Virus record (IMG/VR): IMGVR_UViG_2939127364_000001 | Source of the DNA: a virus | Lineage: Duplodnaviria; Heunggongvirae; Uroviricota; Caudoviricetes | Direction: 5' to 3' (one strand) | Length of the DNA stretch: 64,000 bases | Part shown: positions 7,957-25,421 of the stretch, one piece after another | Position numbering within the stretch: the stretch's first letter is position 1 | How the letters are laid out: the number at the start of each line of letters is the position of its first letter | The notes under the pieces: model-generated | What the model was told of the DNA's origin: nothing | Database searches by the model: none | What the model saw: only the letters and a program-made list of their open reading frames with translations | Made by a program: the position numbers and the translations under genes

Positions 7957-7976
7957 TAGGTAAGTACTTACACATG
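7957..7976. promoter_or_regulatory. Motif B, perfect palindrome GTAAGTACTTAC
   Basis: ggtaggtaagtacttacaca, overlapping the stop of the Gly-rich protein gene. Confidence 0.35.
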
Positions 7977-8813
7977 AGCGCCGTAAATTGCCCCAGCTTT
8001 AGTCCATGTAGGCGCGTTGCCAGTTACGGCTTTACCAGCTGCCCCGCCGCCGTACATTGTCCCCAATCGTCCAGTAGCAGCAGCACCAGCGGCACCTACA
8101 TTACCTCCACTGCCGCATGTGTATTGAACAGCGGTAGAGCCGATCAAATATTGAGCACCAATCCCGGGAGCGGTTAGAGTGCCAGAAGTTGCCGCACGCG
8201 AAGTTGAAGCTGGCGGCCTTGTAGTGTTTGCAACACCAAACGGGCGACCGCCACCACCCATACCACCATCGGCTGAGTTACCGCCGCCACCACCGCCACC
8301 ACCGGCAATAGCGCCGTTATTGGTTATTCTTAAACGAGTCCCAATCCCGTTGTTAATAGCAGTGCCACCGGCAGCACCGCCACCTTTAACGCCACCATTA
8401 CCGCCACGGCCATAGACAGTTACACCTGCGTTGATTACAAGGCTGATATAAGAGTTGGTAAGTGAACTCGGGAAATCTAAACATGGCACGCCGCTACTGG
8501 ACGACACCAGATCCCCTGTAATGGTAACAACGACTGGCGTCGCCCCCTGGGATTTTAAATAGTTGATCAGTGTGTCTTTGTTGTAGTTATGATTCGCACC
8601 GATGCTGTACTGAACTTCTTTAGATCGCCCGGCCATTTGAGACATTGAACCAGCCGCTGGCAGTTGCACCGCCGTTCGAGCCGCACTCATCCATCTCTGG
8701 CCTGTCACACTGACAGCCGAAGACCCAATCCAACCGGGAACACCGACAATTGGCACATCTAATCTCCTTTTTGATGTGAATATCCTGAATTGGTGAGGGT
8801 GGCCCCTCACCAT
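7968..8813 (-). CDS. Glycine-rich tail-fibre-associated protein
   Basis: Gly-rich runs (GGGGGGGG, GGNGGVKGGGAAGG); immediately downstream of the long tail fibre gene; probable GTG start near 8756 after an AGGAG site. Confidence 0.5.
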   Translation of the reverse strand: MVRGHPHQFRIFTSKRRLDVPIVGVPGWIGSSAVSVTGQRWMSAARTAVQLPAAGSMSQMAGRSKEVQYSIGANHNYNKDTLINYLKSQGATPVVVTITGDLVSSSSGVPCLDFPSSLTNSYISLVINAGVTVYGRGGNGGVKGGGAAGGTAINNGIGTRLRITNNGAIAGGGGGGGGNSADGGMGGGGRPFGVANTTRPPASTSRAATSGTLTAPGIGAQYLIGSTAVQYTCGSGGNVGAAGAAATGRLGTMYGGGAAGKAVTGNAPTWTKAGAIYGAHV

Positions 8814-8822
8814 TCACCTTGA

Positions 8823-11800
8823 TTACATTTTTGCCTTCAGTTCGCGCACTTCCTCGCGCAGCTCTTTGACAGCCTCGACCAACATGCCGATAACGCCGTT
8901 GTAGTTAAGACGCAGACGAGGCTCTCCTGACTGATCGTTATGGTCAACCGTTACCAGTTCAGGCTGAACATTCTGGACGTCCTGAGCGATGAGGCCGCCA
9001 GACTGCTCATAACGGCCACAGACCTGAATCTCGTAGAGAACACCTTCGATCTGCTCCAGCTTGTCGAGCGCCCGCTCAATTTTGCGAATATTGCGCTTAC
9101 TACGGCGGTCGGAACGGATGTAAACGTCGTTAAAGCTACCATTCCCACCACAAACCCAAGTGCCGTCATTTTGCAAATAAGCATTAGCATCAGTGCCATT
9201 ATCAGTACGTGAGTTGTTTATCATGTAAAAGCCGAATTGGCTGTTACCTAAACCACCAACAAAAAATTTCCTATCAGCATGGTCTTGTCTTAACAATGCC
9301 TGAGCAGAACTAGTTGATACCTGATTAAGACCAAAAATAACGTTTTGATCTCGCATGCTAATCCAAGAACCTGAGTTGCTGTTAATAGAAAACCTGTTTG
9401 CATATACCCAGGAATTGGTTTTTATATCTCCAGTAACGTTGACAGGCTTATTGCTTTGAACACTCCCACTCGTAAAGCGTAAAACTTGGGTGTTATTGGC
9501 GTAAACATCAAGAATGCCATCTCCATTTTGTTTTAATCCGGTATCGCTATCACCCAGAACAATTGAGTTCCCACCAAGACCATTGACCACACCCAGCCCA
9601 AGACCACCGTCAACAACAGCACCATTGCCCATTGCTACTCTGCCATTAGTGAGATTTACATAAAATGGACGAAGCGAACCTATATCACCATTTTCTCCCT
9701 GGTCTTTTGCTGTCGGGATAAGGTAAAAATTATTTTCGGAACGGCGAAAAATCATCCCGTATGCCGCATCGTAAATGCGCAACCCATCCGTAGAGCGGAT
9801 CTTAAGCTGTCCGGACATCGTACCGCCGCTGTTTTTCATAAATAGCGCATCAATCCAGCCTGCAAATCCCGACTTATTAATGTATAAATTTCCATCATTT
9901 GCCAGAATGCCTCCACCTTGCGTCTTGAGGGGCTGACTCACATTTTGCAGCGTCAGCACACCAGTCATTGTTCCGCCAGAAATCGGTAACGCACCGACAT
10001 CAGCCGCTGTGGGTTTATGAGCAGTGGTATAGACCTGCGCCCAACCAGACCAATTCGCTGTCGAAGTATCACGGCGTGAACGAACATAAACCGGTGCATG
10101 AGCACCATTCGTTCCGCTCCAGCCAATAAGCAACTCGCCCTCACCAGCAGCACTCGCACCTTTCATGTGCAATACGTTGCCATACGTGGTCGGGTAGCTA
10201 TTGTTGTACGCCTCATACATTTGAATGCCAGCAGTGCCTTGAGTAGAGCCACTTAACGCCGTTACGGGCCCGCGTGATACCAATGTATTAATGTTGATAT
10301 CGCCTGAGCCATCAAACTTAACACCATTGATGTTTCTAGCAGTTTGCAACTTCGTAGCTGTTGAAGCATTACCGTTCAAGCTACCATTGATGCCGCCAGT
10401 AACATTGAGTCCATTACCAATGGACACAGCACCGCTGGTATTATTAATTGTAATCGGTCGCAAACCGTTCCATGAACCTAATGTGTCTCCTGATGCTGTT
10501 AGCATGAAATATGTGTTCGACCCATCATTACGGATAAAGAACCCAAAGCTACCGTAAGCAATGCGGAAACCATTTGCATATTTTGAAATGATCTCGCCAG
10601 AAGATGTCAAACCTCCAGATAATGTCCCACCGGTAAGAGGTAATGCACCAACGTCAGATGCTGTTGGTTTATTTTTCGTGTTATATACTCTTCGCCATCC
10701 TGGAGAATAATCTGTGCCATTAAATACATAGATAAACTCCGCATTAGTGAGAGCACCAGAGACACTCGTCGTTGTGGCCGTTGTTATACGGATCGTATAA
10801 TTGTTTGAGCTACTACCGTTATTAAATACCTCTATAACAGCTCCTGCCAATGGAATAACGCCACAACCAGTTTCACTATTTGGTATGGTTGCACTATTGG
10901 CATAGGCCCACGCACATCGAGCAATCCATGACCTTGTGGTAAACGCGCCGTTATTTTGCAATAACGTCACTAACTGTGCTGTTGTTATTGCTCCGCCATT
11001 ACTTCCTGTAGTTAACCAACCAGTAGGAGATGCCGGGCAACCTATATCGGCAGGCCCCAACGATATATTTCTTGTGCCATCAAACGCAATACCGTTGATG
11101 GTTCTTGCGGTTTGCAACTTCGTAGCAGTAGCCGCGTTGCCCGTTGTATTCTGATTACCAGTCGTATTAACACCTGGCAAATTAATATTCGCAGTACCAT
11201 CAAAGCTCACGCCGCCGATAGTTCTTGCCGTCTGAAGTTTTGTAGCAGTTGCAGCATTACCAGTGGTGTTCTGATTACCCGTAGTATTTACACCTGGAAG
11301 GTTGATATTTGCAGAACCGTCGAAACCAACTCCACCGATAGATCTTGCCGTCTGCAATTTCGTTGCTGTACTTGCATTACCATTTAATGTTCCGGTGATC
11401 CCACCAGTAACAGACAACGGACCTGAAACTGTTCCTCCGGTTGTTGGCAGTGCTCCAATATCTAACGGCGTCGGTTTCTGATGTGTGCTATACATCGTAT
11501 AAACAACACCATCGGTAACGCTGGAAGGCTTACTCGCTGAATATGTTGGCGATGTATAAATAGAAACTGTCGCATTTGCAGTACAATCCCAATGGATATT
11601 TACACGAGTCGCATAATTGCCAATCTCAACGTAAATATCATATGTATCGCCGGATGTGTTGATCCAGGCGAAATTCGTTAATCCGACAGCTGTACGCTTC
11701 CACAAAGCACCTGTAATCCCTTTGGGGTTTCCATTGCCTGCTCGTAGAACCAGTTCTGAAATACCTGCCTGATGTGGGGAGCCAACGTTAAACCCTGCGC

Positions 11801-13469
11801 CACCAATCAGGCTTATGTAAACCACGGAACTGGCTTGTGGCATGGTTACAGTTGCCAGCTTGAACCATCCGGCACCACCACTAAAAGACATTGTTATTGA
11901 ATTTAAAGTACCAATATCTTTCGGCGTTAATGTGATATCCGCAGTCAGTGCTTTACCGTTAACTTTTCGGTTAGATGGTACCCTGCCATTCGCATTGTCA
12001 TTGGCTGCTTTAACTGCCTTCGGTGTCGCGGCAAGCGTTTCAGATGTGCTGTTGGTTGCACTACTGAGCTGGACTATCCCCTTTTTCGTCGTGCTCGCAT
12101 CCTCAAGCGCCACGGCGGATGCAATATCCTCTGCCCGTTTTGCCGCTGTCTCAGCGCGCGTTGCTGCGGATTCTGCCGTACTTTTGCTCTGTGCTGCCGC
12201 CGTCGCACTGCCAGCAGCCTCTGTTGCCTTCGTGGATGCCGTCGTGGCGCTGCCCTTCGCTGCTGACGCCTGTCTGGTCGCCTCATCTTTTGAAGCAGAC
12301 GCAGATGATGCCGATGACGCTGCCGAACTGGCGGACGATGCCGCTGCCGTTTTTGAGGATTCTGCACGGGTTTCCGACGCTTTCGCGTTCGTTTCGGATG
12401 TCTTCGCTGCGGAAGCTGACCTCGCTGCTGCGCTGGCCTGTTCAGTGGCTTGGCCAGCCTTCGTTGTGGCTGTTGAAGCAGACGATGCGGCACTTTCTGC
12501 CGATTTTCCGGCGGCGGTGGCACTGGCTGAGGCCTGCCCGGCACTTGTTGACGCGGCACTGGCAGACGACGCAGCCGCTGTTTTTGAGCCTGCCGCAGCC
12601 GAGGCGCTCTGTCCCGCTGCCGTTTCAGAAGACCTGGCGTTCGTCTCGGACGTTTTTGCCGCCTTCGCGGAATTTCCTGCCGCCGTTGCCGAGGAAGCGG
12701 CATTACTGGCGCTCGAGGCTGCGCTCGTTTCTGATGATTTCGCTGCCTCTTTTGAGGCCGCCGCATCCCGGGCTGAGGTGGCAGCTTCTGACGCCTTCGT
12801 GGTCGCGGTGGATGCAGAAGTGGCTGCAGATTTTTGTGACGCTGCAGCATTCGTTTCAGATTTTTTCGCAGCAGTTGCACTCGCACTTGCGGCACTTTGT
12901 GAGGATGCCGCAGCGGATGCACTTTGAGACGCTTGAGAGGCTTTTTCTCCAGCAGTATTGGCGCTTTCTGCTGCTGCGGCAGCACTGGCCGCCGCCTCAC
13001 GAGCTTTGTCGCCAGCAGCATCAATCGCGTCAGTGTTATTTTTATACCACTCAACGTTTTCGTTGTGCTCGTTGACGATCTGCATTAGCGGCTTAACGGT
13101 CACTTCTGTACCGTCTTCACGCTCGATTGTCACCTCATCCAGCGCAGTCAACCAACTGCGTATGGACTTGGAATCAGCCGACATACGCGACATTAGCGCA
13201 GTAAAGCGCGCGCTAAACTGTGTTAAGTCGCCTTCATAGGTCGTAATGATTCGGCACGGAACCTCAGACTGAGTTTCGCCGGTATAAGGTTCTGAGAGAA
13301 CAATATTCGTATCGCTTATTACGCGCTTGATCTCGTACAGCTTATTGTCGGGGCCAATGACGATCATCCCCGGCAACACACCATTAGCTGTTACGTTCCA
13401 GGCTGTCCCTGCCCCAACCAGAGTATTGCTACCCTGTGTAAATGTGATAGTACCTTCCCTGTACCACAT
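8823..13469 (-). CDS. Long side tail fibre (Stf-like) with Ala/Ser-rich region, repeated fibre motifs and a C-terminal chaperone-like domain
   Basis: 1548 aa; long A/S/T-rich low-complexity segment; NASTATKLQTAR...FDG..NI.L repeated at least 4 times; C-terminal SDRRSKRNIRKIERALDKL resembles self-cleaving intramolecular chaperone domains. Confidence 0.8.
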   Translation of the reverse strand: MWYREGTITFTQGSNTLVGAGTAWNVTANGVLPGMIVIGPDNKLYEIKRVISDTNIVLSEPYTGETQSEVPCRIITTYEGDLTQFSARFTALMSRMSADSKSIRSWLTALDEVTIEREDGTEVTVKPLMQIVNEHNENVEWYKNNTDAIDAAGDKAREAAASAAAAAESANTAGEKASQASQSASAAASSQSAASASATAAKKSETNAAASQKSAATSASTATTKASEAATSARDAAASKEAAKSSETSAASSASNAASSATAAGNSAKAAKTSETNARSSETAAGQSASAAAGSKTAAASSASAASTSAGQASASATAAGKSAESAASSASTATTKAGQATEQASAAARSASAAKTSETNAKASETRAESSKTAAASSASSAASSASSASASKDEATRQASAAKGSATTASTKATEAAGSATAAAQSKSTAESAATRAETAAKRAEDIASAVALEDASTTKKGIVQLSSATNSTSETLAATPKAVKAANDNANGRVPSNRKVNGKALTADITLTPKDIGTLNSITMSFSGGAGWFKLATVTMPQASSVVYISLIGGAGFNVGSPHQAGISELVLRAGNGNPKGITGALWKRTAVGLTNFAWINTSGDTYDIYVEIGNYATRVNIHWDCTANATVSIYTSPTYSASKPSSVTDGVVYTMYSTHQKPTPLDIGALPTTGGTVSGPLSVTGGITGTLNGNASTATKLQTARSIGGVGFDGSANINLPGVNTTGNQNTTGNAATATKLQTARTIGGVSFDGTANINLPGVNTTGNQNTTGNAATATKLQTARTINGIAFDGTRNISLGPADIGCPASPTGWLTTGSNGGAITTAQLVTLLQNNGAFTTRSWIARCAWAYANSATIPNSETGCGVIPLAGAVIEVFNNGSSSNNYTIRITTATTTSVSGALTNAEFIYVFNGTDYSPGWRRVYNTKNKPTASDVGALPLTGGTLSGGLTSSGEIISKYANGFRIAYGSFGFFIRNDGSNTYFMLTASGDTLGSWNGLRPITINNTSGAVSIGNGLNVTGGINGSLNGNASTATKLQTARNINGVKFDGSGDININTLVSRGPVTALSGSTQGTAGIQMYEAYNNSYPTTYGNVLHMKGASAAGEGELLIGWSGTNGAHAPVYVRSRRDTSTANWSGWAQVYTTAHKPTAADVGALPISGGTMTGVLTLQNVSQPLKTQGGGILANDGNLYINKSGFAGWIDALFMKNSGGTMSGQLKIRSTDGLRIYDAAYGMIFRRSENNFYLIPTAKDQGENGDIGSLRPFYVNLTNGRVAMGNGAVVDGGLGLGVVNGLGGNSIVLGDSDTGLKQNGDGILDVYANNTQVLRFTSGSVQSNKPVNVTGDIKTNSWVYANRFSINSNSGSWISMRDQNVIFGLNQVSTSSAQALLRQDHADRKFFVGGLGNSQFGFYMINNSRTDNGTDANAYLQNDGTWVCGGNGSFNDVYIRSDRRSKRNIRKIERALDKLEQIEGVLYEIQVCGRYEQSGGLIAQDVQNVQPELVTVDHNDQSGEPRLRLNYNGVIGMLVEAVKELREEVRELKAKM
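10300..11450. repeat. Intragenic direct repeats (~120 bp units) encoding the tail fibre repeat motif
   Basis: Repeated ...ttgcaacttcgtagc... units near 10321, 11090, 11212 and 11332. Confidence 0.5.
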
Positions 13470-13502
13470 GTTGAATATGCTCCTTGATTTGGCGGGTTAT
13501 CC

Positions 13503-13522
13503 TTGCCCGCCATTAAGTAAAT
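13503..13522. promoter_or_regulatory. Motif B-like site between J and tail fibre genes
   Basis: ttaagtaaatgcttacctat, next to hairpin ggcggg-ttatccttg-cccgcc. Confidence 0.3.
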
Positions 13523-13562
13523 GCTTACCTATTTTTACCGATATAAAAATTTTTTTCCACCA

Positions 13563-16500
13563 TCACAGACGGCCAATTCTTACTCGTAAGACGTTGTTAT
13601 CGTCATAAACGTCAATCCGCTGACCATTTATAACCAATCGCCCATTGCCGCCGCTATTACCGTTGATCTCAAGCGTTCCATTTTTGCCGAACCGCCATCC
13701 AGATCTACCGCTAACAAAATTGGTAGATTGCAGATCGCCTACTTTTGCATTGGTGATTGTGCCATCCTTGATATACGCTCCATTCATATAGGCGATACTG
13801 TTTTCGATAACAAATGGCGTTGTGATCTTCCCGTTAACAGAGTTGACCAAACCAAACCTGTCCGCCTGAACCAAAAACTGAGATAGCCCAGTGGTGTCAA
13901 TACCAAGCGCAATACCGGCAACATACTTCTGACCTCCGCTCGTTGAAGTCTCCATTTTCAACGTCCACGCGGTTGACACTTTTTTGTTGGTATCAGCAAT
14001 AGCTGTTGCCTGCTGTTGAATTGTCGCGGTATTTCCATCCACCTCTGCTTTCAGAGTATCGATTCGCCCACTCAGAGCATTATCTGCCTGCGTTCTCGCT
14101 GTCGTTTCAGTTGTTACCGCCGCGGAAATGTTGGCTGCCGTTTGAGACTCTAAGTTTGTGATTTGAGTCGCCAATGCAGCATCTTGGTCTGTACGCGTTT
14201 TCGTTTCGGTTGCTACAGCCGCTTTAATATCCTCTTTGTATTGAGAGGTCAGCTTGGTGATCTGAGACGACAACGCCGAGTCAGCATCAGTTCGAGCCTG
14301 CGTTTCAACTGCAACGGCCGCACTAATATCTTTCGCTGTCTGTGCTTTTAAATTTGAAACCTCTTTTGTTAAAGCGGTATCACCATCTGCACGAGCCGTT
14401 GTTTCTCTGGCAAGAGACGCCTCGAGATCATTAGCTTTTGCTGTAAGAGACGTAATCTGGGTAGACAATGCACTATCGGCATCAGTCCTTGCTTTTGTCT
14501 CTACAGCAACCGCTGCGGCAATATCAGTTCCGGTTTGTGCTCGCAGGCTGTTAATTTCTCGTGAGAGCGCCTGGTCAGCACTTGCTCTGGCCTCCTGCTC
14601 CTGAGTGATGGCAGCGGATATATCACCGTCAACCTTTGACTGAAGCTGGTTTATTTGTTTGGCTAACGCAGAGTCCCCGCTTGCTCGGGCCTCCTGCTCA
14701 CTACGTATTGCAGCAGAAATATCATCATCAACCTTTGCCTGAAGTTGGGTGATCTGGCTTGCCAGAGCCGAATCTTCCGTTGCTCGGGCTTCTTGCTCTT
14801 CCTTAATAGCTGCGACGATATCGTTGCTTACTTTCGACTCAAGCTGAGTGATCTGTGTCGTCAGAGCTTCATCGGCAGATGTACGAGCCTCCTGCTCTGT
14901 ACTAATCGCCGCGCTGATATCTCCTTCAAACTTAGATTGCAGCTGAGTGACACGCTTTGCCAACGCTTCATCGCCATCGGCACGAGCGGTGGACTCTTCC
15001 AGAATACTGGCCTTAATGTCTTCGCCAATTTCTACGCGAATTTCCTCAACCTTCGTGGCCATTGCAGACATATCATCAGCAAAGGTTTTCTGTGTTGTTG
15101 CGATCTTCGCGTTATTGACCATCTGCTTGTGCTGGTCTTCATCTTGACGAAGAGCCAGGTCAATATTTGTTTTGGCTAACGCCTCAATGTTCGTAGTCAG
15201 TTCTGCACTTGCACGATCGACCTCTGCAACCGTCTTTTTCATTTCTTCAACGGCAGCGGAGCTTTCCTCTACCGTTGACTGCAACACTTCCAGTTGTTTA
15301 GCGTTTGCAGCATCGCCTTCAACACGAGCCTCGCTTTCCTTAGCAATAAGAGCCGCCGCTTCATCTCTTGCAGCCTTTATTGCCTCGACTGTATTAGCGA
15401 GAGCTTTATCGTGTTCAGATACGGTGTTTTCGATTTCAACAATTGCAGCATCAGTAGCATCAATTTTTTCAAACGCTTCATTGACCTTGTCGATCGTTGC
15501 CGAAACCTCACCTTTAAGCTCGGTTTGTGCGTTCTCCAAAGCATCGCTACGCTCGTTGAATTTTATTTCAAAATCCGCGAGGTTATCGCTGAACTGCTTA
15601 TCTAATTCAGCTATATCTTCCTTAACGTCGTTTACCGCCCCCTCCAAAGATTCGACGCTCTGGTTGATATGCTCATTTAACTCGTCAACTGCTTCTTGAG
15701 AGGCTTTGCTGTTGATGTCCTCAAGCAGAGCCTGACCAAGCTCGGAAGATGTAATTTTGCCAGTCAGGAACGACAGTACATCGCGAGTTGTCGCCTCTGT
15801 ACCCAAGTTTGAGTTCGGAGGACTTAACATACCTCGCTTGTTCGATGCTCGAACCCAGTAATACCACGTTTCACTATCCCCAAGACCAGCATGTGTAAAG
15901 GTGGTGCTTGCAGACTCTGCGATCAGTTTCGCCGTATCCAGATTGTTGGTCTGGGATGCGTAAACATTAATGTGATCAAGGTCTACCGAATCTGGATTAA
16001 CCCAATTCAGTATCACATTACGATAGTCTCCAACGGCCGTTAATGACGTTGGTGCATCCGGCGGTGTCATTGTGCCCAGCACCTGATAAACGGTACTGAT
16101 AATTTCTGTTTTTTTACCGTTGAATGAAACCGCATACAGTTGGAAGTCGTAGCGTCCATTCTCCGCGACATTAACAATTTCGTATTGCTCTTCGGTTACA
16201 CGCGCCGATTGCCAGTTCGATATATTGTTTTCATCAGAACGTCGCCAACTGATCCAATACTCTGGAGATTTCCCTTCCCATGTTGCAGTCAGTTTTACTG
16301 ACAGGTTGCCAGGGCTTGAGAGATAAGTCCCTTCGGTGATTTGCAAATTAGACGGCTTGGAGTAAGTCGGGTCCAATACCGTCGTATTCTGCGGGATAAG
16401 CGTTGCACCATTGTCGATCGCCTCATATTTAGACGGATTGTTCTCAACAGCGGTGATGTCAAAGCTACCCGGCGTTTCCCCCTGCGCGATGTTAACGATG

Positions 16501-18296
16501 CGAACGCGCATAGGTTCGAGATCTGGTTCTGTAATTGTCCAGACACCGTTCAAAACAGGCGTTTCCGCTGACGACAGGGCTTTTGAAAACGTAACTTTTG
16601 TTATATTTTCGCCAGTTTCAAGAACATCGCGTTCAACGATTTTGCCTTCCTGATTCAGTATTCGAATAAAGCAGCCGCCTTTGGCTAACGACACAGGCGC
16701 ATCGAGTGTGACGCTGTTTTTGGTAAACGCCACAATTCGACCTGAGTTACGTTTGCCTGCGCGATATTTGTTCTGAATCAGAACGGTTTCACCAGGCATC
16801 AGAAATGACGCGTCTAAGCCAGCAGTAAATGTAATTACATCCGACTCCATTCTGGCGGTATATAAAAGCCACAAACCAACTCGGTGAGCCTGCCCTCGGC
16901 TTGTACAGCCAAATGCTACGACTTCTGTTTTACGCTCACCATAACGGCGCATTGCGTCCTGATCTTCGACGTACTCGATGTTTTGCTTATAACCGTCCTC
17001 CTTGTTGTTGTAGGTTACGAGCGCAACGGATGGGCGATCTTTACGCGCAGAACCTTTATAGGTAAACAATCCATCTTTGACGTTAGAGTTGGTAAACATC
17101 ATTACCGGATCTGATGGGCTATCCTGCATGATGTTGACCATCCCACCAGCCCAAAACACCATGCCGCGGAATGCTCCGGCAATATCCTGAATTAGCCGGT
17201 ATGCGTCCTGTCGACTGGTGATCTGCGTATTGATTGCAAAGCGTTTCTCTTTGCCACCAAAGCCATCATCGACCTCTTCGTCACAATATCGACCAATCTG
17301 GTACAACTGGCCAAGGTCAATCATAGATTCCGACACATACTGACCAAGGCCATATCGAGCATTGGTCAGCAAATCAAAGAGAATCCACGCGGGGTTCGAA
17401 GAAGACAACAGCTTAAAAGTGCCATCCCATACCCCAGCGTAAGTGTTACTGGACTCGTTATAGTTTGAAGGTACTCGAATTTTTAGGCCACGCACCAGAT
17501 AAGAGCGAGATGGCATGGTGCTGCCGAATTGCTCAGAGTTTACCTTCAATCCAACCAAAACAGAGTTTGGATAGTTCATCGGTGTATCGACAATTTCCCC
17601 GATTGAATCCACCCATGTATCGTTATAGAGATACTGGCTACTGTTATCATCGGTAATACGGACCACACGAACCTTGTATGCGCGTCCAGGCTTAGGCAGC
17701 TTCAGCTCGTAGCTACGGTAATAAACGCCGGTCTTCTTTGCTGTTAGCTTAATGCCAACGCTTTTTTCACCTTCCGCGACCACATCTACAAATGTTGAGT
17801 CGCCATTTGCTATCTGGAACTTGTACTCAACAGTCGTACCGTTCGTGTCACCAGTTTTTTTATCTATGCTTCGCAAAGAAGGAAACTTCATGATGACACG
17901 AACCCGATCAGCTTCATCGTTATCGATTGAAACCGTTACATAATGTGTTTTTTTTAACTGGATATTGACGGATTTAGGCGTTTCAACGAAATCAAAGCCA
18001 GACATTGGAGTCTGGTCTTGTGAACCGTCGCGAAAATCCCATGTGATTCCGCTGAAGTTGGAGGAACCGTCTTCATTTACAATCGGCAGATCGTCGATAA
18101 AAATAGATCTTGCGCCATTTACTAAGCCGCCAATTACCCCTTCCCCAAGAAGATCGAGGATAGCGGCCATTGCACGAGAATTTACGGTATCGTCGGCTTC
18201 AACCGGTGTACGGCTGGAGCTTTTGCTGCTTTTTTTACCACCCGCACCGGCAATAAACAGCGGTAGCTTTTTCTTCTTGAACTGTTCCATGTTCAA
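13563..18296 (-). CDS. Tail tip / host-specificity protein (lambda J-like) with a long central coiled-coil repeat region
   Basis: 1577 aa; N-terminus resembles J-family proteins; position immediately after the I-like gene; central ~33-aa repeats. Confidence 0.85.
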   Translation of the reverse strand: MNMEQFKKKKLPLFIAGAGGKKSSKSSSRTPVEADDTVNSRAMAAILDLLGEGVIGGLVNGARSIFIDDLPIVNEDGSSNFSGITWDFRDGSQDQTPMSGFDFVETPKSVNIQLKKTHYVTVSIDNDEADRVRVIMKFPSLRSIDKKTGDTNGTTVEYKFQIANGDSTFVDVVAEGEKSVGIKLTAKKTGVYYRSYELKLPKPGRAYKVRVVRITDDNSSQYLYNDTWVDSIGEIVDTPMNYPNSVLVGLKVNSEQFGSTMPSRSYLVRGLKIRVPSNYNESSNTYAGVWDGTFKLLSSSNPAWILFDLLTNARYGLGQYVSESMIDLGQLYQIGRYCDEEVDDGFGGKEKRFAINTQITSRQDAYRLIQDIAGAFRGMVFWAGGMVNIMQDSPSDPVMMFTNSNVKDGLFTYKGSARKDRPSVALVTYNNKEDGYKQNIEYVEDQDAMRRYGERKTEVVAFGCTSRGQAHRVGLWLLYTARMESDVITFTAGLDASFLMPGETVLIQNKYRAGKRNSGRIVAFTKNSVTLDAPVSLAKGGCFIRILNQEGKIVERDVLETGENITKVTFSKALSSAETPVLNGVWTITEPDLEPMRVRIVNIAQGETPGSFDITAVENNPSKYEAIDNGATLIPQNTTVLDPTYSKPSNLQITEGTYLSSPGNLSVKLTATWEGKSPEYWISWRRSDENNISNWQSARVTEEQYEIVNVAENGRYDFQLYAVSFNGKKTEIISTVYQVLGTMTPPDAPTSLTAVGDYRNVILNWVNPDSVDLDHINVYASQTNNLDTAKLIAESASTTFTHAGLGDSETWYYWVRASNKRGMLSPPNSNLGTEATTRDVLSFLTGKITSSELGQALLEDINSKASQEAVDELNEHINQSVESLEGAVNDVKEDIAELDKQFSDNLADFEIKFNERSDALENAQTELKGEVSATIDKVNEAFEKIDATDAAIVEIENTVSEHDKALANTVEAIKAARDEAAALIAKESEARVEGDAANAKQLEVLQSTVEESSAAVEEMKKTVAEVDRASAELTTNIEALAKTNIDLALRQDEDQHKQMVNNAKIATTQKTFADDMSAMATKVEEIRVEIGEDIKASILEESTARADGDEALAKRVTQLQSKFEGDISAAISTEQEARTSADEALTTQITQLESKVSNDIVAAIKEEQEARATEDSALASQITQLQAKVDDDISAAIRSEQEARASGDSALAKQINQLQSKVDGDISAAITQEQEARASADQALSREINSLRAQTGTDIAAAVAVETKARTDADSALSTQITSLTAKANDLEASLARETTARADGDTALTKEVSNLKAQTAKDISAAVAVETQARTDADSALSSQITKLTSQYKEDIKAAVATETKTRTDQDAALATQITNLESQTAANISAAVTTETTARTQADNALSGRIDTLKAEVDGNTATIQQQATAIADTNKKVSTAWTLKMETSTSGGQKYVAGIALGIDTTGLSQFLVQADRFGLVNSVNGKITTPFVIENSIAYMNGAYIKDGTITNAKVGDLQSTNFVSGRSGWRFGKNGTLEINGNSGGNGRLVINGQRIDVYDDNNVLRVRIGRL
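14000..15010. repeat. Tandem ~99-bp (33-aa) degenerate repeats inside the J-like gene
   Basis: About 10 repeats of ALxxQITxLxxKVxxDIxAAIxxEQEARxxxD in protein; visible DNA periodicity. Confidence 0.6.
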
Positions 18297-20837: not shown

Positions 20838-23800
20838 TTAGTTACGTTGAGTGTTTGGGTTGAGTGATCCGCCAGGGCGTTTCTCTTGAGCGATAGTCTC
20901 AAGCGCGATTGCTTTCATCCGTTGAGCGGCATTGTTCCATATGCTTTCTGTATCGCCGGATTCAGTTGTGCTACCGTCACTATGGACGTTGATCTCAATT
21001 GATACCGGAGAAAGAACATTTCCTCCTCCACTCATACCATCGGTACTGAGCGTTACAGGGATTGTTCGACCATCAGGCAATGGAACATACGCCTCATTCA
21101 TATCGCCTTCCCCAAACAACGCCAATTGAGGTGAGTTGGCGATACCGCCTTTCTGGTATGCCCGGAGCGGGATCACGCCGTCTTTTCCGAATATGCCACC
21201 ATTTGCAAACTTCGGAATTGCAGGAATACCATTCGTGCCATCGGCAGCAGAACTGGTCAGATTGTTGAACCCGGAAGTTGAGCCAGAAGAACCGGACATC
21301 AATCCATCGAATCCACCACCAGCCCATACTGAAACCAAACCAGATGCAACTGTTGCGCCGAAATTCAACCACTTATTACCAGAGCCGGAAGCATTAGCTC
21401 CAAGCATTGCAAACGCGGCAGACAGCGCGCCGGTAACAGAACTGAGGTTCTGCATCGAGAAGATGGAGTCCTTCACGGCTTTTGTCTCGGCATCTTTGGC
21501 TTCAGTGCTATCAAATAGCCCTGATACCCAGCTACCAATCGCATTTGTTGCAGTGCCAATTGCGCTGGTGGTCTGCTGTGTTGTTTGCCCCAATCCAGTT
21601 ACCGAACTGGACGTCTCCTTCGTGGCTTCTCCTACCGACTTGTCGCCATTAACAGTGTTGCTTATGCGCACACCTTGATTGGCAACGGCGGAAGCAACCC
21701 CGGTGAGCAAATTACCACTCTGTGAACTACCAGCTGCGGTGGTTCCCATCCCCAACATGTTCATTAGAGGCAGCGTGATCTGCGACTTCACGACCATATT
21801 GGTGATATCTTTCAAAATGGACTGAGACAGGCTGGAGAAGCTCATCTTCCCGTTAATAACGAAATCAGTCAGGACATCAGTTAAGCCACTAAACAAATCA
21901 GTCCAGGTGCTTTCGATCTGCTCTGCCAGGTTTTCGTATTCCAGTGCCAACTTCTGCGTCGCAGTCCCCGTCTCTTTAATAAGCGCGGTATTGCCAGCAG
22001 CAATAAGTTGATTGATCTTTTTATCGAACAACTCAATCTGGCTTTGTGAGGCTGTGCCTGACTCAATCGCAGCTTTACGTAAATCCATCAACGCTTTAAG
22101 GTTGCGATTATAGGTTTCTTCGAAATCAGCAACTTTCTCTTCACGAGACGGCGTATAGCCAGCACTAATAATGGAATCCGCCTCCGGTGCCCAAGTGGAG
22201 ATCATCTGCTCAACATTGCGGCGATTAAACATCTCGCGATATTCAGGTGTCGCATTTTTGAGGTCTTCAAGACGTTTTTTCGCCTTGTCGATCATCTCTT
22301 GAGTGATGAACTCGTTAGGAACCGCATTAGCCAAATCTGTCAGCGATTTCGTTGTATCGCGAAGAGACTGATCAAACGATACCGTAGCCTTAGAGCTTTC
22401 ACCCATTTGCCCCATAAGCTGATCGGCTTTGTCCAGAGCCTTCTGATATCCGGCCGCCAGTTTCTGTTGCGCTGCCTGTTCTTTCTTTGCTGCTCTCTCG
22501 GCTGCTTTTGCGGTACGGTTTGCTGCCTTATCTGCTGCTTCTGCATCAAGTTCACGAGCTTTTGTCAGAGTCTTAATTACTGCGATGCGGTCATTTTCTG
22601 ACAACTGCTCTAATTTCACATCACCGTAAATTTTCTTCTGTCTTAATTGCTCCTTGAGTTGTCGAGGCCCAACAACAGGTTGACCTTGTAAGTCGTATAA
22701 TGCGGTACCATCGAGATTGACTCTTTGATACCTTTTAGAGTCCATCTGCTGTTTCCAAAAACCAGTCATAGTTTTGGAATTAGCATCAACTGGTGTGCTT
22801 GAAAACTCACCAATTTTACCGCCATTAATAGAAACCAAGCCGTCCCCAGCTTTCACGCTAAGACTGATTTCAAGGTTCTCCATCCCCTCTTTTACAATCT
22901 TCAAAGCCTCGGTGGTGGCGTCTATCTTTGTCTGGGCTTCTTTTTGCCCCTGCATATCGTTCGACTCTTGGGTCTTTTTGAGCTCTTCAGAGTATGTGGC
23001 GAGTTCACCAAGCCCCTTCTCATAACGAGCTTTATACCCTTTGAGTTTTTGCTCGTCGGCCTGGGCGTACAAACGTCCAAGTTCTGCGTTGTTTTCTGCC
23101 CTTAATTTGCTTTTTTCGTGGTCGGACAAGTCCGACCGCGCGGCAATTTTCTCATTGCTTTTGGTGAGTCTTTCTATCTCTTTGGCGACTGAGGCTATTA
23201 ATGCATTCCCTTTCTGGTTGACCGCATCAATATCCTCTCTATATTTCTTAGTAATGCTTTGTTTGATGGTTTCGGCTATGCCGCCATCAAGAGCTTTGGC
23301 GACTTCCTCTCTTTCTTTTCGCGCTTTTTCCAGTTTCTTTTTGCTGTCGTCAACATCGACACCAACTTCGTACGGTCCCGTGTATGCTGAAAAATGCAAG
23401 GTTTTGCCAGTCTCGACTTCTTTTTCCAGTCTGGAGATCTCTCGATCTTTCTTGCTCAGTTCGCTTTCCAGCATCGCGCGATCTGCCTGCGTCATCGCTT
23501 CAGGGATTTCTCTGACTTTGTTTACAACGTCTTCGACTTTCTTCCTCAGACTGCTCATGTGCCAGATCAGCGTCGAAACCGCCGTTACCGCAGCAGTAAA
23601 GAAGAACCCTATAGGGTTTGCAGCCATGAACGCAGTCAAGCCAGCAAATGCATTGCGAATAGCAAAAATCAATGCAGGGATGGTAGATAGTCCCATGCGT
23701 GAGGCTCGATTGAAGCGTTTAACGGCTGTCGTCGCAAGATCAAATGTCCCCTGTATTGTGGTGGATACCGTAGCAAAGGTGCTGATCATGCTATTAGCAG

Positions 23801-25421
23801 TGCCAATGACACCAGAAATCCCCGATTTGAGGAGTCTGAAGGCCATCGTGACAGCGACGGCTTTGCCGAAAGTGACAACAAGCTCCTGGTTTTTAATCAG
23901 CCATTTCGCCAGGTCACGCAAACCATCAATAGCCGTCGTCAATCCGCTTCCCAACGAGTGAGCAAAAGATGTACCCTCTGCGCTATTCATCAGGGAGGTG
24001 AGTTCTTTCATTCCCTCTCTTAAAGAAGACAAATAACCAGTCTGGCCTACTTTGTCCGCGAACAGCGTAAAGGCTGTCTTCATTTGCGCCAACGTACCGG
24101 TAAATGTGTTCATCATTTCGGACGCAGCTCCCTCGTTCTGCATCTTCAACTCTTTGAACATAAGTGCCAGTGCGTTTTTGGCTTCTACCGTTCCAGATGC
24201 TACAGCTTTAGTTAACTCGCCCATTGTCAGACCAGCAGCCTTGGCCATTGCGTTCATTGCTGTCGGAATCGCCTCACCTAATTGCTGGCGAAGCTCTTCC
24301 ATCGATACAACACCCTTACCAGACATCTGCTGAACAGCAATGGATGCACGCTTCAGAAGTTCGCTATCACCACCAAAACGAGCAACGGAGTCCACCAGCG
24401 CCTTCAGAGAACCATCGGTTGGATCTAAGCCAGCAGAACGAAACTTCACGAAGGAGTCTGTTAACGCCTGCATCGCGAACGGCGCATTTTGAGCCATGTC
24501 TACGATGTACTTCATATCATCAGCGGCAGCCTGGCCCGGGTTGGACTTCTCCTTATTCAACCCTCGAAGCATCACCCGCATACGTTCCATTTCGGCCGCA
24601 GCTTCAACAATAGGCTTCTGCCACCCAAACATGATGTCAGTAACCGTTCTGGCTGCATCTCCGATCTCGCCAAGCAGGAAAATGTTGCCACGAAGGCCAG
24701 AGAACATACCTCCTTCGTTACTTTTACCGCTATGGCCAGAAGCGCCGCTACGCCGCCCGCTACCACCATCGCCACTTCCAGATGTACGAACGCGTACCGG
24801 CTTGCTAATCAGTTGCTGACGTCCGATAACTTCGTCCATCTGCTCACGAACCTTTTTCAGTCCCTCGGCAGCCTGACTCGTTGTGACACCCCAATTACTG
24901 AGTCGCTTCGTCGTGGTATTAAGGCGCGTATTCATGCCACTCACGGACGCAGAGGCTTCTTTGACCTCCGTACCAAAGCGGCTTGCGCTTTTGCTTGCAT
25001 AGGTCGCCCAATCAGAGAAATCATTTAGCTCTGATTGCACTTTACGTAATGACGCGGTGAGTTTATCTACTGAAGAAGTTGTCGTATCGACGCGCTCAAT
25101 CAGGGCTTTAAGACCAGAATTGAGGCTGGTGATGTTGCCACGCATTTTACGCGTAGCATCTGAAGCAAGCTCAAAACCGGCAGCTACATCCTGTAGTTTA
25201 TCTGCCGTAGAATCGAGCTTGCTTTCCAGAACGCCAATGATACGGGCGACCGAACCCAAAGAGCGTTCAAAGGTTTGGATTTTTTGAGCAGGCTTTGTTA
25301 CCTGCTCACCAAATCGAGTAAGCAGTTTCCCCGCACGATCGATTGACGCTGTAAACTGTTTGTCTTCCAGCGACAGGATAAACTCTACGTTTTGTGACAT
25401 TCCCTTGTCATCCTCTGCCAA
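20838..25421 (-). CDS. Tail tape measure protein
   Basis: 1527 aa, highly alpha-helical and Ala-rich with Gly-rich C-terminal region; located between the G/T chaperone and M. Confidence 0.85.
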   Translation of the reverse strand: MAEDDKGMSQNVEFILSLEDKQFTASIDRAGKLLTRFGEQVTKPAQKIQTFERSLGSVARIIGVLESKLDSTADKLQDVAAGFELASDATRKMRGNITSLNSGLKALIERVDTTTSSVDKLTASLRKVQSELNDFSDWATYASKSASRFGTEVKEASASVSGMNTRLNTTTKRLSNWGVTTSQAAEGLKKVREQMDEVIGRQQLISKPVRVRTSGSGDGGSGRRSGASGHSGKSNEGGMFSGLRGNIFLLGEIGDAARTVTDIMFGWQKPIVEAAAEMERMRVMLRGLNKEKSNPGQAAADDMKYIVDMAQNAPFAMQALTDSFVKFRSAGLDPTDGSLKALVDSVARFGGDSELLKRASIAVQQMSGKGVVSMEELRQQLGEAIPTAMNAMAKAAGLTMGELTKAVASGTVEAKNALALMFKELKMQNEGAASEMMNTFTGTLAQMKTAFTLFADKVGQTGYLSSLREGMKELTSLMNSAEGTSFAHSLGSGLTTAIDGLRDLAKWLIKNQELVVTFGKAVAVTMAFRLLKSGISGVIGTANSMISTFATVSTTIQGTFDLATTAVKRFNRASRMGLSTIPALIFAIRNAFAGLTAFMAANPIGFFFTAAVTAVSTLIWHMSSLRKKVEDVVNKVREIPEAMTQADRAMLESELSKKDREISRLEKEVETGKTLHFSAYTGPYEVGVDVDDSKKKLEKARKEREEVAKALDGGIAETIKQSITKKYREDIDAVNQKGNALIASVAKEIERLTKSNEKIAARSDLSDHEKSKLRAENNAELGRLYAQADEQKLKGYKARYEKGLGELATYSEELKKTQESNDMQGQKEAQTKIDATTEALKIVKEGMENLEISLSVKAGDGLVSINGGKIGEFSSTPVDANSKTMTGFWKQQMDSKRYQRVNLDGTALYDLQGQPVVGPRQLKEQLRQKKIYGDVKLEQLSENDRIAVIKTLTKARELDAEAADKAANRTAKAAERAAKKEQAAQQKLAAGYQKALDKADQLMGQMGESSKATVSFDQSLRDTTKSLTDLANAVPNEFITQEMIDKAKKRLEDLKNATPEYREMFNRRNVEQMISTWAPEADSIISAGYTPSREEKVADFEETYNRNLKALMDLRKAAIESGTASQSQIELFDKKINQLIAAGNTALIKETGTATQKLALEYENLAEQIESTWTDLFSGLTDVLTDFVINGKMSFSSLSQSILKDITNMVVKSQITLPLMNMLGMGTTAAGSSQSGNLLTGVASAVANQGVRISNTVNGDKSVGEATKETSSSVTGLGQTTQQTTSAIGTATNAIGSWVSGLFDSTEAKDAETKAVKDSIFSMQNLSSVTGALSAAFAMLGANASGSGNKWLNFGATVASGLVSVWAGGGFDGLMSGSSGSTSGFNNLTSSAADGTNGIPAIPKFANGGIFGKDGVIPLRAYQKGGIANSPQLALFGEGDMNEAYVPLPDGRTIPVTLSTDGMSGGGNVLSPVSIEINVHSDGSTTESGDTESIWNNAAQRMKAIALETIAQEKRPGGSLNPNTQRN

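Follow-up and report, generated by a model that had tools for sequence, protein, structure and literature searches.

The closest described counterparts of the tail fibre considered here are the central fibres of F-type pyocins. The source of the energy with which non-contractile phage tails breach the cell envelope is a long-standing question, and it was not until 2026 that a switch from coiled coil to β-prism was put forward as an answer, for a pyocin alone. In the F7 pyocin, the shaft of the central fibre passes from a coiled coil to a triangular β-prism, opening the tip, after which the tape measure is ejected (He et al. 2026, preprint, PMC12874032). The present analysis concerns a 64,000-nucleotide stretch of viral DNA (IMG/VR record IMGVR_UViG_2939127364_000001; hereafter the window), identified as an SSU5-like phage-plasmid, in which the gene for a J-like central tail fibre or tail tip protein (13563..18290, minus strand; hereafter J) encodes a tandem array of 33-residue units. 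The locus places the sequence signature of this type of switch in the SSU5-like phage-plasmids, a group that the literature discusses as vehicles of resistance genes. Protein identity is 99.6% between J and the 'tail host specificity protein J' of Escherichia phage Cyrano, and 73.8% between J and the tail protein of Salmonella phage SSU5. Cyrano is plasmid pLF82 of strain LF82 and has been described as an inducible SSU5-like phage-plasmid of siphovirus morphology.

According to the F7 preprint, each strand of the prism carries the motif SxSxxMxxLxS, defined on the F7 pyocin and 24 phage fibres, in alternating direction, and an acidic residue (Asp or Glu) in the M position often has a partner Arg at a distance of four residues. 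Small residues at the prism corners, exposed as long as the shaft is a coil, are buried once it is a prism; their replacement by Gln abolishes killing by F7 and leaves assembly unaffected. A987 and A995 lie in prism corners, E1039 and R1043 form a salt bridge and the switch extends over 163 residues. These published residue numbers fit, as a matter of arithmetic, a forward/reverse unit of 32 residues, and the F7 switch would therefore comprise about 5 units. For 30% of related phage fibres the AlphaFold3 prediction was a prism and not a coiled coil, and the discussion of the preprint states that phages lambda and T5 use no such switch. The central fibre of the F2 pyocin (PA0641) is the subject of PMC13455828 and bioRxiv 10.64898/2026.02.24.707460 (PDB 25vf), and in cryo-electron microscopy structures F-pyocin fibres before firing are coiled coils. 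The pyocin shaft is described as mainly heptad-based, and two further papers on F pyocins report that the side fibres dock on the same shaft, at an acidic kink.

J resembles the F-pyocin central fibre in its layout of a J-like hub body, a long helical shaft (trimeric in the pyocin, predicted in J) and a β-prism tip of family PF09327. The alignment runs through both shaft and tip, with amino acid residues (aa) 1240-1547 of J matching residues 882-1193 of the F2 fibre (25vf) at E=1.5e-24 in a phmmer search of the sequences of solved structures; homology to the pyocins was measured on this F2 fibre, and F7 is compared through its published residue numbers. Both proteins also have the SxSxxMxxLxS motif in alternating direction, and in both a Glu in the M position is matched by an Arg at i+4. 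In contrast to the 163-residue, approximately 5-unit switch of the pyocin, the shaft of J is much longer, with about 556 predicted helical residues and 10-11 recognisable units. Its units are of 33 and not 32 residues, with a hydrophobic period of 3.66 in place of a mainly heptad register, and the element is a DNA-delivering phage, not a tailocin. The switch has been demonstrated for the F7 pyocin; for J it is proposed.

A second point of comparison is lambda gpJ (PDB 8iyk, 8xcj). The hub is alignable over about 840 residues (lambda J 3-837 to J 19-861, phmmer E=2.5e-124), lambda J 839-971 aligns to the Phage_Tail_Tip domain at J 1418-1547, and the gene order M-L-K-I-J is shared. Because the alignment skips the segment between these two blocks, about 556 residues of predicted helix are inserted in J between the hub body and the tip domain, in agreement with the initial annotation of the locus, a reading of the sequence alone, which had proposed a fibrous extension absent from lambda J. 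Lambda has no shaft between residues 837 and 839, and extends past residue 971 into its own LamB-binding end, which is absent from J. The NCBIfam model lambda_TipJ scored 529.5 bits against a cut-off of 1950, matching aa 23-908 only, and J is therefore to be regarded as a relative, not an equivalent, of lambda J.

Phage T1 gp33 (1172 aa; PDB 9l9p; PMC11945409) is likewise J-like and ends in a closely similar tip domain. It has only about 3 units of 33 aa; these (ALSREIDQLKAQIGDDIQASLTDIREVIATETE) are near-identical and can be aligned with units 3-6 of the array described below (J aa 1167-1293 against gp33 repeats 890-1016, i-E=6e-9). The C-terminal 352 residues of gp33 were too flexible to resolve, and an AlphaFold3 model represents them as a 37-nm extension (PMC11945409). 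The fibre protein of the N4-like Pseudomonas podovirus DEV (PDB 9ze4 chain N; PMC12892993) can be aligned both with units 0-3 and with the last 63 residues of J, so the shaft-plus-tip module is not confined to siphoviruses.

Tandem units and their motif content

Ten tandem units occupy aa 1074-1402 of J (window 14085-15071, minus strand), each of 33 aa with the exception of unit 6, and are followed by a degenerate 11th. Identity at a lag of 33 residues was 47.5%, against 9.7 ± 1.6% in 1000 shuffles (maximum 14.6%), and DNA identity at a lag of 99 was 52.5%, against 29.2 ± 1.4% in codon shuffles, with lags 198 and 297 next in rank. The invariant or near-invariant columns of the unit are A3, L4, I/V8, L11, D18, I19, A21, I/V23, E26, A29 and R30. 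The initial annotation had proposed about ten repeats with a period of about 99 bp, or 33 aa, and the consensus ALxxQITxLxxKVxxDIxAAIxxEQEARxxxD, and was correct in each respect. It had also identified the right array, at 14000-15010, with coordinates displaced by about 60-85 bases, and had assigned it to the central part of the protein, where it in fact sits in the C-terminal third. Tandem Repeats Finder reported only the two most similar units (14581-14798, 2.2 copies, period 99, 76% matches); since pairwise DNA identity between units is only 44-75%, the program understates the array.

All units are encoded on the minus strand. Unit 0 (aa 1074-1106; 14973..15071; MSAMATKVEEIRVEIGEDIKASILEESTARADG) is the most degenerate and is followed by unit 1 (aa 1107-1139; 14874..14972; DEALAKRVTQLQSKFEGDISAAISTEQEARTSA) and unit 2 (aa 1140-1172; 14775..14873; DEALTTQITQLESKVSNDIVAAIKEEQEARATE). 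Units 3 (aa 1173-1205; 14676..14774; DSALASQITQLQAKVDDDISAAIRSEQEARASG) and 4 (aa 1206-1238; 14577..14675; DSALAKQINQLQSKVDGDISAAITQEQEARASA) form the most similar pair, with 75% DNA identity, and are merged in variants with 9 units. After unit 5 (aa 1239-1271; 14478..14576; DQALSREINSLRAQTGTDIAAAVAVETKARTDA), unit 6 (aa 1272-1303; 14382..14477; DSALSTQITSLTAKANDLEASLARETTARADG) is of 32 aa, the commonest unit length in the wider family. The array proper ends with unit 7 (aa 1304-1336; 14283..14381; DTALTKEVSNLKAQTAKDISAAVAVETQARTDA), unit 8 (aa 1337-1369; 14184..14282; DSALSSQITKLTSQYKEDIKAAVATETKTRTDQ) and unit 9 (aa 1370-1402; 14085..14183; DAALATQITNLESQTAANISAAVTTETTARTQA).

Each unit contains the prism-strand motif of the F7 fibre twice, once in either direction. 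The forward motif lies at unit positions 3-13 in 10/10 units and in the 11th (e.g. ALASQITQLQA), the reverse motif at positions 21-31 in 10/10 units (e.g. AAIRSEQEARA), and the two alternate through the array with a fixed 18/15 spacing. Over aa 862-1420 there were 33 motif matches, compared with 7.4 ± 2.6 in shuffled sequences (maximum 20). Glu26, at the M position, and Arg30 stand in an i,i+4 relation and are invariant across all ten units. In a family profile of 474 units, taken from 107 proteins of separate 50%-identity clusters and picked by a hidden Markov model (HMM) built on the window array, both residues were present in 100% of units, positions 3, 5, 13, 21, 29 and 31 held small residues in 97-100% and positions 8, 11 and 23 hydrophobic residues of the Leu/Ile/Val type in 97-100%. 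An i,i+4 Glu-Arg salt bridge would fit a helix, and the small residues would fit prism corners. The Glu-Arg pairs, the fixed small residues and the homology to the pyocin shaft together support a sequence selected for two conformations.

Towards the tip the composition of the shaft changes, Ser+Thr content climbing from 11.7% in the part upstream of the array to 17.6% in units 0-4 and 25.6% in units 5-9; the content of β-branched residues climbs likewise. The degenerate 11th unit (aa 1403-1432; 13995..14084; DNALSGRIDTLKAEVDGNTATIQQQATAIA) marks the boundary between helix and β structure, and the unit HMM matches its aa 1403-1420. The forward motif is retained (at 1405), while in the reverse half Gln and Ile replace the Glu26/Arg30 pair. 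Strands are predicted there by AlphaFold2 (AF2) at aa 1410-1417 and 1420-1432, with low to moderate confidence. The proposal that this unit is a constitutive seed of the prism was withdrawn, as the F2 pyocin alignment indicates that the equivalent segment may lie inside the switching coiled coil.

Predicted helix and proposed refolding of the shaft

AF2 models were of a single chain and not of a trimer, and covered aa 1239-1575, with 73 diverse homologues, and aa 826-1575, with lower confidence. The first consisted of a single unbroken helix over aa 1240-1402 and a β-rich tip from aa 1410; block means of the predicted local distance difference test (pLDDT) for the helix were mostly 82-95, falling below 50 at its C-terminal end. 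The second was helical over aa 851-1406, with low-confidence breaks at aa 1044-1062 and aa 1200-1205, the latter probably produced by the model folding the long helix back on itself. Proline is absent throughout aa 862-1420. A long segment predicted to be helical and coiled-coil-prone thus lies directly N-terminal to the PF09327 tip, as in fold-switching shafts, and the alternating motif, the Glu-Arg pair and the homology to the F-pyocin central fibre shaft are features of such shafts found in the sequence of J. The hydrophobic period is 3.56 in the upstream shaft and 3.66 (33/9) in the array, where there is almost no power at 3.5; the value for the array is in part dictated by its repeat length of 33 residues. 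The array is therefore hendecad-like rather than heptad, and is not a canonical heptad coiled coil; the initial description of the units as coiled-coil repeats stands in so far as one long proline-free helix is predicted, and does not extend to a heptad register. At 0.148 nm per residue, a unit would measure about 4.9 nm, the array of ten about 49 nm and the whole predicted helix (aa 851-1406) about 82 nm, so that the unit count multiplied by about 4.9 nm offers a simple rule for predicting fibre length from sequence.

These predictions tell against a shaft that is never helical in the virion, namely a constitutive β-prism or β-helix in which each unit forms a permanent hairpin, one rung of a rigid spike. 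AF2 returned helix at pLDDT 82-95 in units 5-9 even when the alignment contained 74 sequences, the hydrophobic period is 3.66 and not about 2, and the i,i+4 pair of Glu26 and Arg30 has no obvious role in a strand. The prisms given by AlphaFold3 for 30% of related phage fibres (PMC12874032), the compatibility of the motif with prism strands and the AF2 strands in the 11th unit are in its favour, but F-pyocin fibres before firing are coiled coils by cryo-electron microscopy, and a permanent prism is considered improbable.

The high-confidence continuous helix, its amphipathic 3.66 periodicity without proline and the invariant Glu26-Arg30 pair would also be accounted for by a static spacer, that is, a stable trimeric coiled coil that sets the distance from hub to tip and does not refold, the number of units tuning reach through O-antigen or capsule, or matching side-fibre length. 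The change of copy number by whole units is consistent with such a spacer, as is the statement that lambda and T5 lack a switch of this kind (PMC12874032). What it leaves unexplained is why positions 3, 5, 13, 21, 29 and 31 should be 97-100% small in very divergent proteins, and why the motif should alternate in direction with a fixed 18/15 spacing. A content of 21.6% Ser+Thr and 23% β-branched residues is unusual in a stable coiled coil, and the homologous pyocin shaft does refold. A static spacer is regarded as the main rival explanation, though rather an unlikely one.

The reading favoured here, with a probability of roughly 0.6, is that the array is the distal shaft of a trimeric central tail fibre, is metastable and refolds to a β-prism, the number of units setting reach, stroke and energy. 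The refolding is proposed from units that each hold a forward and a reverse copy of the F7 prism-strand motif. In the virion the shaft would most likely be a long three-stranded α-helical coiled coil, to which each 33-residue unit would contribute nine helical turns, about 4.9 nm, and which would keep the β-rich Phage_Tail_Tip domain at a distance from the tail hub. On receptor engagement the coiled coil would refold to the prism unit by unit, from the tip domain upward. One unit would yield one β hairpin of two strands, about 1 nm in size, leaving the fibre about five-fold shorter. The hub would thereby be pulled and remodelled, with release of the tape-measure protein and the DNA. Reach, stroke length and stored energy would all be fixed by the number of units, which in-register recombination would change.

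Influenza HA2 provides a functional analogy, being a metastable trimeric fibre whose refolding on contact with a receptor or trigger does work without ATP, and the comparison with spring-loaded fusion proteins was drawn by the pyocin authors themselves (PMC12874032). The likeness does not extend to homology. In HA a loop becomes a coiled coil, whereas the change proposed here is from coiled coil to β-prism, and HA2 is not built from repeats of variable copy number.

Several observations weigh against a refolding shaft. The fold switch is demonstrated for the F7 pyocin only, in a 2026 preprint, and for phages the evidence consists of AlphaFold predictions. AF2 returned helix for J, also where a diverse alignment was supplied to elicit the β form; a monomer cannot test a trimeric prism, and the switch is neither supported nor excluded by this outcome. 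The regular expression used for the motif is permissive, and selection of the family units by an HMM built on the window array inflates their conservation, especially the 100% values for Glu26 and Arg30. Packing in the array may differ from that in the pyocin, because its period is 3.66 and the pyocin shaft is mainly heptad. From published electron microscopy of Cyrano only a tail length is available, 259 nm, where the tape measure would predict 228 nm; the fibre was not resolved. Finally, a pair of small genes found after J in other phages is absent after J in the window, where a large side fibre gene follows after 93 bases (13470-13562). Since this gene pair is lacking at the locus, the trigger may differ. 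In lambdoid phage mEp043 and Burkholderia phage KS9, the two small genes that follow J encode about 100 and about 225-238 aa (locus L002, 9705-10681; locus L003, 8825-9849). They are likely counterparts, by position and size only, of pyocin PyoF11 and PyoF12, which are thought to bind the fibre end.

The non-repetitive upstream part of the predicted helical shaft (aa 851-1073; 15072..15740, minus strand) was recognised by AF2 helix, periodicity and motif matches. The matches, at aa 921, 948, 963, 980, 995 and 1012, are weaker than those of the array and alternate between forward and reverse with a 15/17 spacing (aa 921-1022). A motif-free gap follows at aa 1023-1075, and within it, just upstream of the array, lies a candidate shaft kink (aa 1044-1062; 15105..15161, minus strand; DLALRQDEDQHKQMVNNAK). 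This segment is acidic (RQDEDQH), and AF2 places breaks at aa 1047-1048 and 1058 with pLDDT below 50. In position and charge it is like the acidic kink of F-pyocin shafts, and on that analogy it might, speculatively, be a docking site for side fibres.

Docking could in principle be the role of the repeats themselves, each serving as a site for side fibres or accessory proteins, with copy number setting the load. F-pyocin side fibres do dock on the coiled-coil shaft, and the gene directly after J encodes a side fibre of 1548 aa. Pyocin docking, however, needs one short acidic kink and not repeats, and the sole kink-like segment of J is upstream of the array. The N-terminus of the side fibre gave no sequence match to solved pyocin side fibres. 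Its matches to solved structures (P1/Mu S and T4 gp34/gp37) start only at about aa 800 and include none to the pyocin anchor; docking on the shaft is therefore unsupported, and such a platform is considered very unlikely.

Unit number in orthologues and in the wider family

Application of the unit HMM to the 120 closest homologues of J gave counts of 4 to 10 units. Four units were present in homologue P0116 (1353 aa), five in proteins of 1385-1386 aa (95 of the 120 clusters), with which the SSU5 gene is equal in length (about 1385 aa), and six in proteins of 1425-1426 aa. Seven units were found in P0005, eight in P0003 and P0004, 9-10 in P0007 and P0008 (one 32-aa unit under the threshold being counted in) and ten in J itself. 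The comparison of orthologue lengths that had been suggested as a check on the array thus showed copy number changing by whole units, from 4 (1353 aa) to 10 (1575 aa), with in-register chimeras. The accompanying suggestion that repeat number varies and could tune fibre length is borne out as regards the variation; the signature of the pyocin shaft indicates that length tuning is probably not the whole function.

In P0003 a chimeric junction joins DEALTTQITQL to QAKVDGDISAAITQEQEARASA; this fusion spans units 2-4, with the in-register loss of 66 aa. In P0116 DESLAQQITTLKSQTGKDI is joined to NAAITSEATVRTNA, with 33 aa removed in register, and in P0006 unit 3 is duplicated. Two complete plasmids, pPEC178_2 and that of strain CT01, have 9 units through fusion of units 3 and 4; the two fusions were independent events and have different junctions. 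Repeat-number variation is real and recurrent, and takes place by in-register recombination between units. The locus also suggests that hairpin units which can be counted make up the proposed switch region, and that their number differs between otherwise near-identical alleles; alleles with 4, 5, 6, 7, 8, 9 and 10 units would form a natural series bearing on stroke length or stored energy in infection.

A more far-reaching interpretation, offered tentatively and thought unlikely, treats the shaft as a mechanical actuator of modular design. Each 32/33-residue unit would store one quantum of refolding energy and of stroke (about 4 nm of shortening), and in-register recombination would match the number of units to the thickness or toughness of the host envelope. 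If this were so, the 4-to-10-unit SSU5-like series, with up to 21 units elsewhere, would amount to a protein spring in graded doses, produced by natural evolution.

With aa 1074-1575 as the query, 3304 representatives at E <= 0.001 were obtained from a set of 1.84 billion representative proteins. Among the best 145 of these the number of units ranged from 0 to 21, the maximum being found in P0361, a J-like protein of 2138 aa, and a spacing of 32 residues (160 cases) was commoner than one of 33 (62 cases). PF09327 followed the array in 5/5 top representatives tested. Units of 32 aa are carried by gp19 of Burkholderia phage KS9, and J of mEp043 contains three perfectly identical 32-aa units (aa 986-1081; locus L002, 8884-9171; ATARSLLSLQTDVNGNKASINSLNQTFSDYQQ), which points to very recent duplication. 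The array is not peculiar to the window phage, 32/33-aa units preceding Phage_Tail_Tip in the diverse fibre proteins examined. Since these proteins carry up to 21 units, ten is not extreme and the module is widespread. Among database homologues of the shaft-plus-tip region, a large share bear the label 'partial' and come from contigs of a few kb, and many copies of these genes are cut off at contig ends, possibly because the repeats break short-read assemblies; if so, unit counts from such assemblies are unreliable.

Annotations of hundreds of plasmids already list the gene product as a tail tip fibre protein; the class of mechanism was described in 2026. Literature searches returned nothing relevant on an earlier description of repeats in SSU5-like J proteins, and the F7 pyocin preprint (PMC12874032) does not contain the words repeat, heptad or SSU5. 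No named family exists for the 33-aa repeat in Pfam, PHROGs or NCBIfam. In the searchable literature no description was found of the tandem 32/33-residue organisation of the switch region, of copy-number polymorphism with in-register recombination, or of the presence of the region at double length in SSU5-like phage-plasmids.

The J gene and its neighbours

The open reading frame (ORF) of J extends over 13563..18296 (minus strand), and the start shared with 1575-aa orthologues (MEQF) places the ATG at 18290, giving a protein of 1575 aa plus stop and not the 1577 aa first assigned. The hub or body of J (15819..17987, minus strand) comprises the Pfam domains FNIII-A_GpJ (aa 102-236, E=1.5e-29), Phage-tail_3 (aa 358-521, E=7e-34) and fn3 (aa 745-824), and is alignable to lambda J 3-837, T1 gp33 and the F2 pyocin fibre. 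The distal Phage_Tail_Tip domain PF09327 (aa 1423-1557; 13620..14024, minus strand; E=1.4e-41) was all-β in the AF2 model, and Foldseek matched it to the SU10 tail tip fibre and the lambda gpJ central fibre. Pfam gave no match anywhere in aa 830-1420, repeats included, and PHROGs matched the C-terminal half of J by generic tail-fibre families only.

Upstream of J lie ORFs with matches to Phage_min_tail (M), Phage_tail_L (L) and NlpC/JAB (K) and an ORF of tape-measure size (1527 aa, 20838-25421); the near-identical Cyrano record is annotated TMP-M-L-K-I-J. The initial designation of the protein as J-like is upheld by its four domains and by M, L and K upstream. The N-terminus of an SSU5-like J was present in 222 of 5426 complete E. 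coli genomes (about 4%), plasmid-borne every time, and 164-167 of the 5426 have the window array at a DNA identity of at least 95%.

Downstream of J, the 1548-aa side fibre (Gp34_trimer, Peptidase_S74) is followed by a gp38-type adhesin. The side fibre gene (8823-13469, minus strand) is mosaic. Over the first ~1060 aa its product shares 89% identity with the Cyrano fibre, and the distal end is swapped, being T4 gp34/gp37-like with a Peptidase_S74 chaperone domain in the window and P1 S-like in Cyrano (locus L001, 16822-20847). The separate gp38-type adhesin gene (7968-8813, minus strand) accompanies the window side fibre, and the 99.6% identity of J holds between these same two elements. At about aa 140-450 of the side fibre (window about 12120-13050, minus strand) there is a low-complexity stretch of ~300 residues rich in Ala, Ser, Thr, Glu and Lys (…AAASAAAAAESANTAGEKASQASQSASAAASSQSAAS…), the opposite strand of which contains several long spurious ORFs (11842-12927, 12119-13075). 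ORFs of 103-175 aa also run antisense to the shaft-coding region of J (14745-15179, 15172-15699 and 15294-15605, plus strand) and are most likely by-products of biased composition, not genes.

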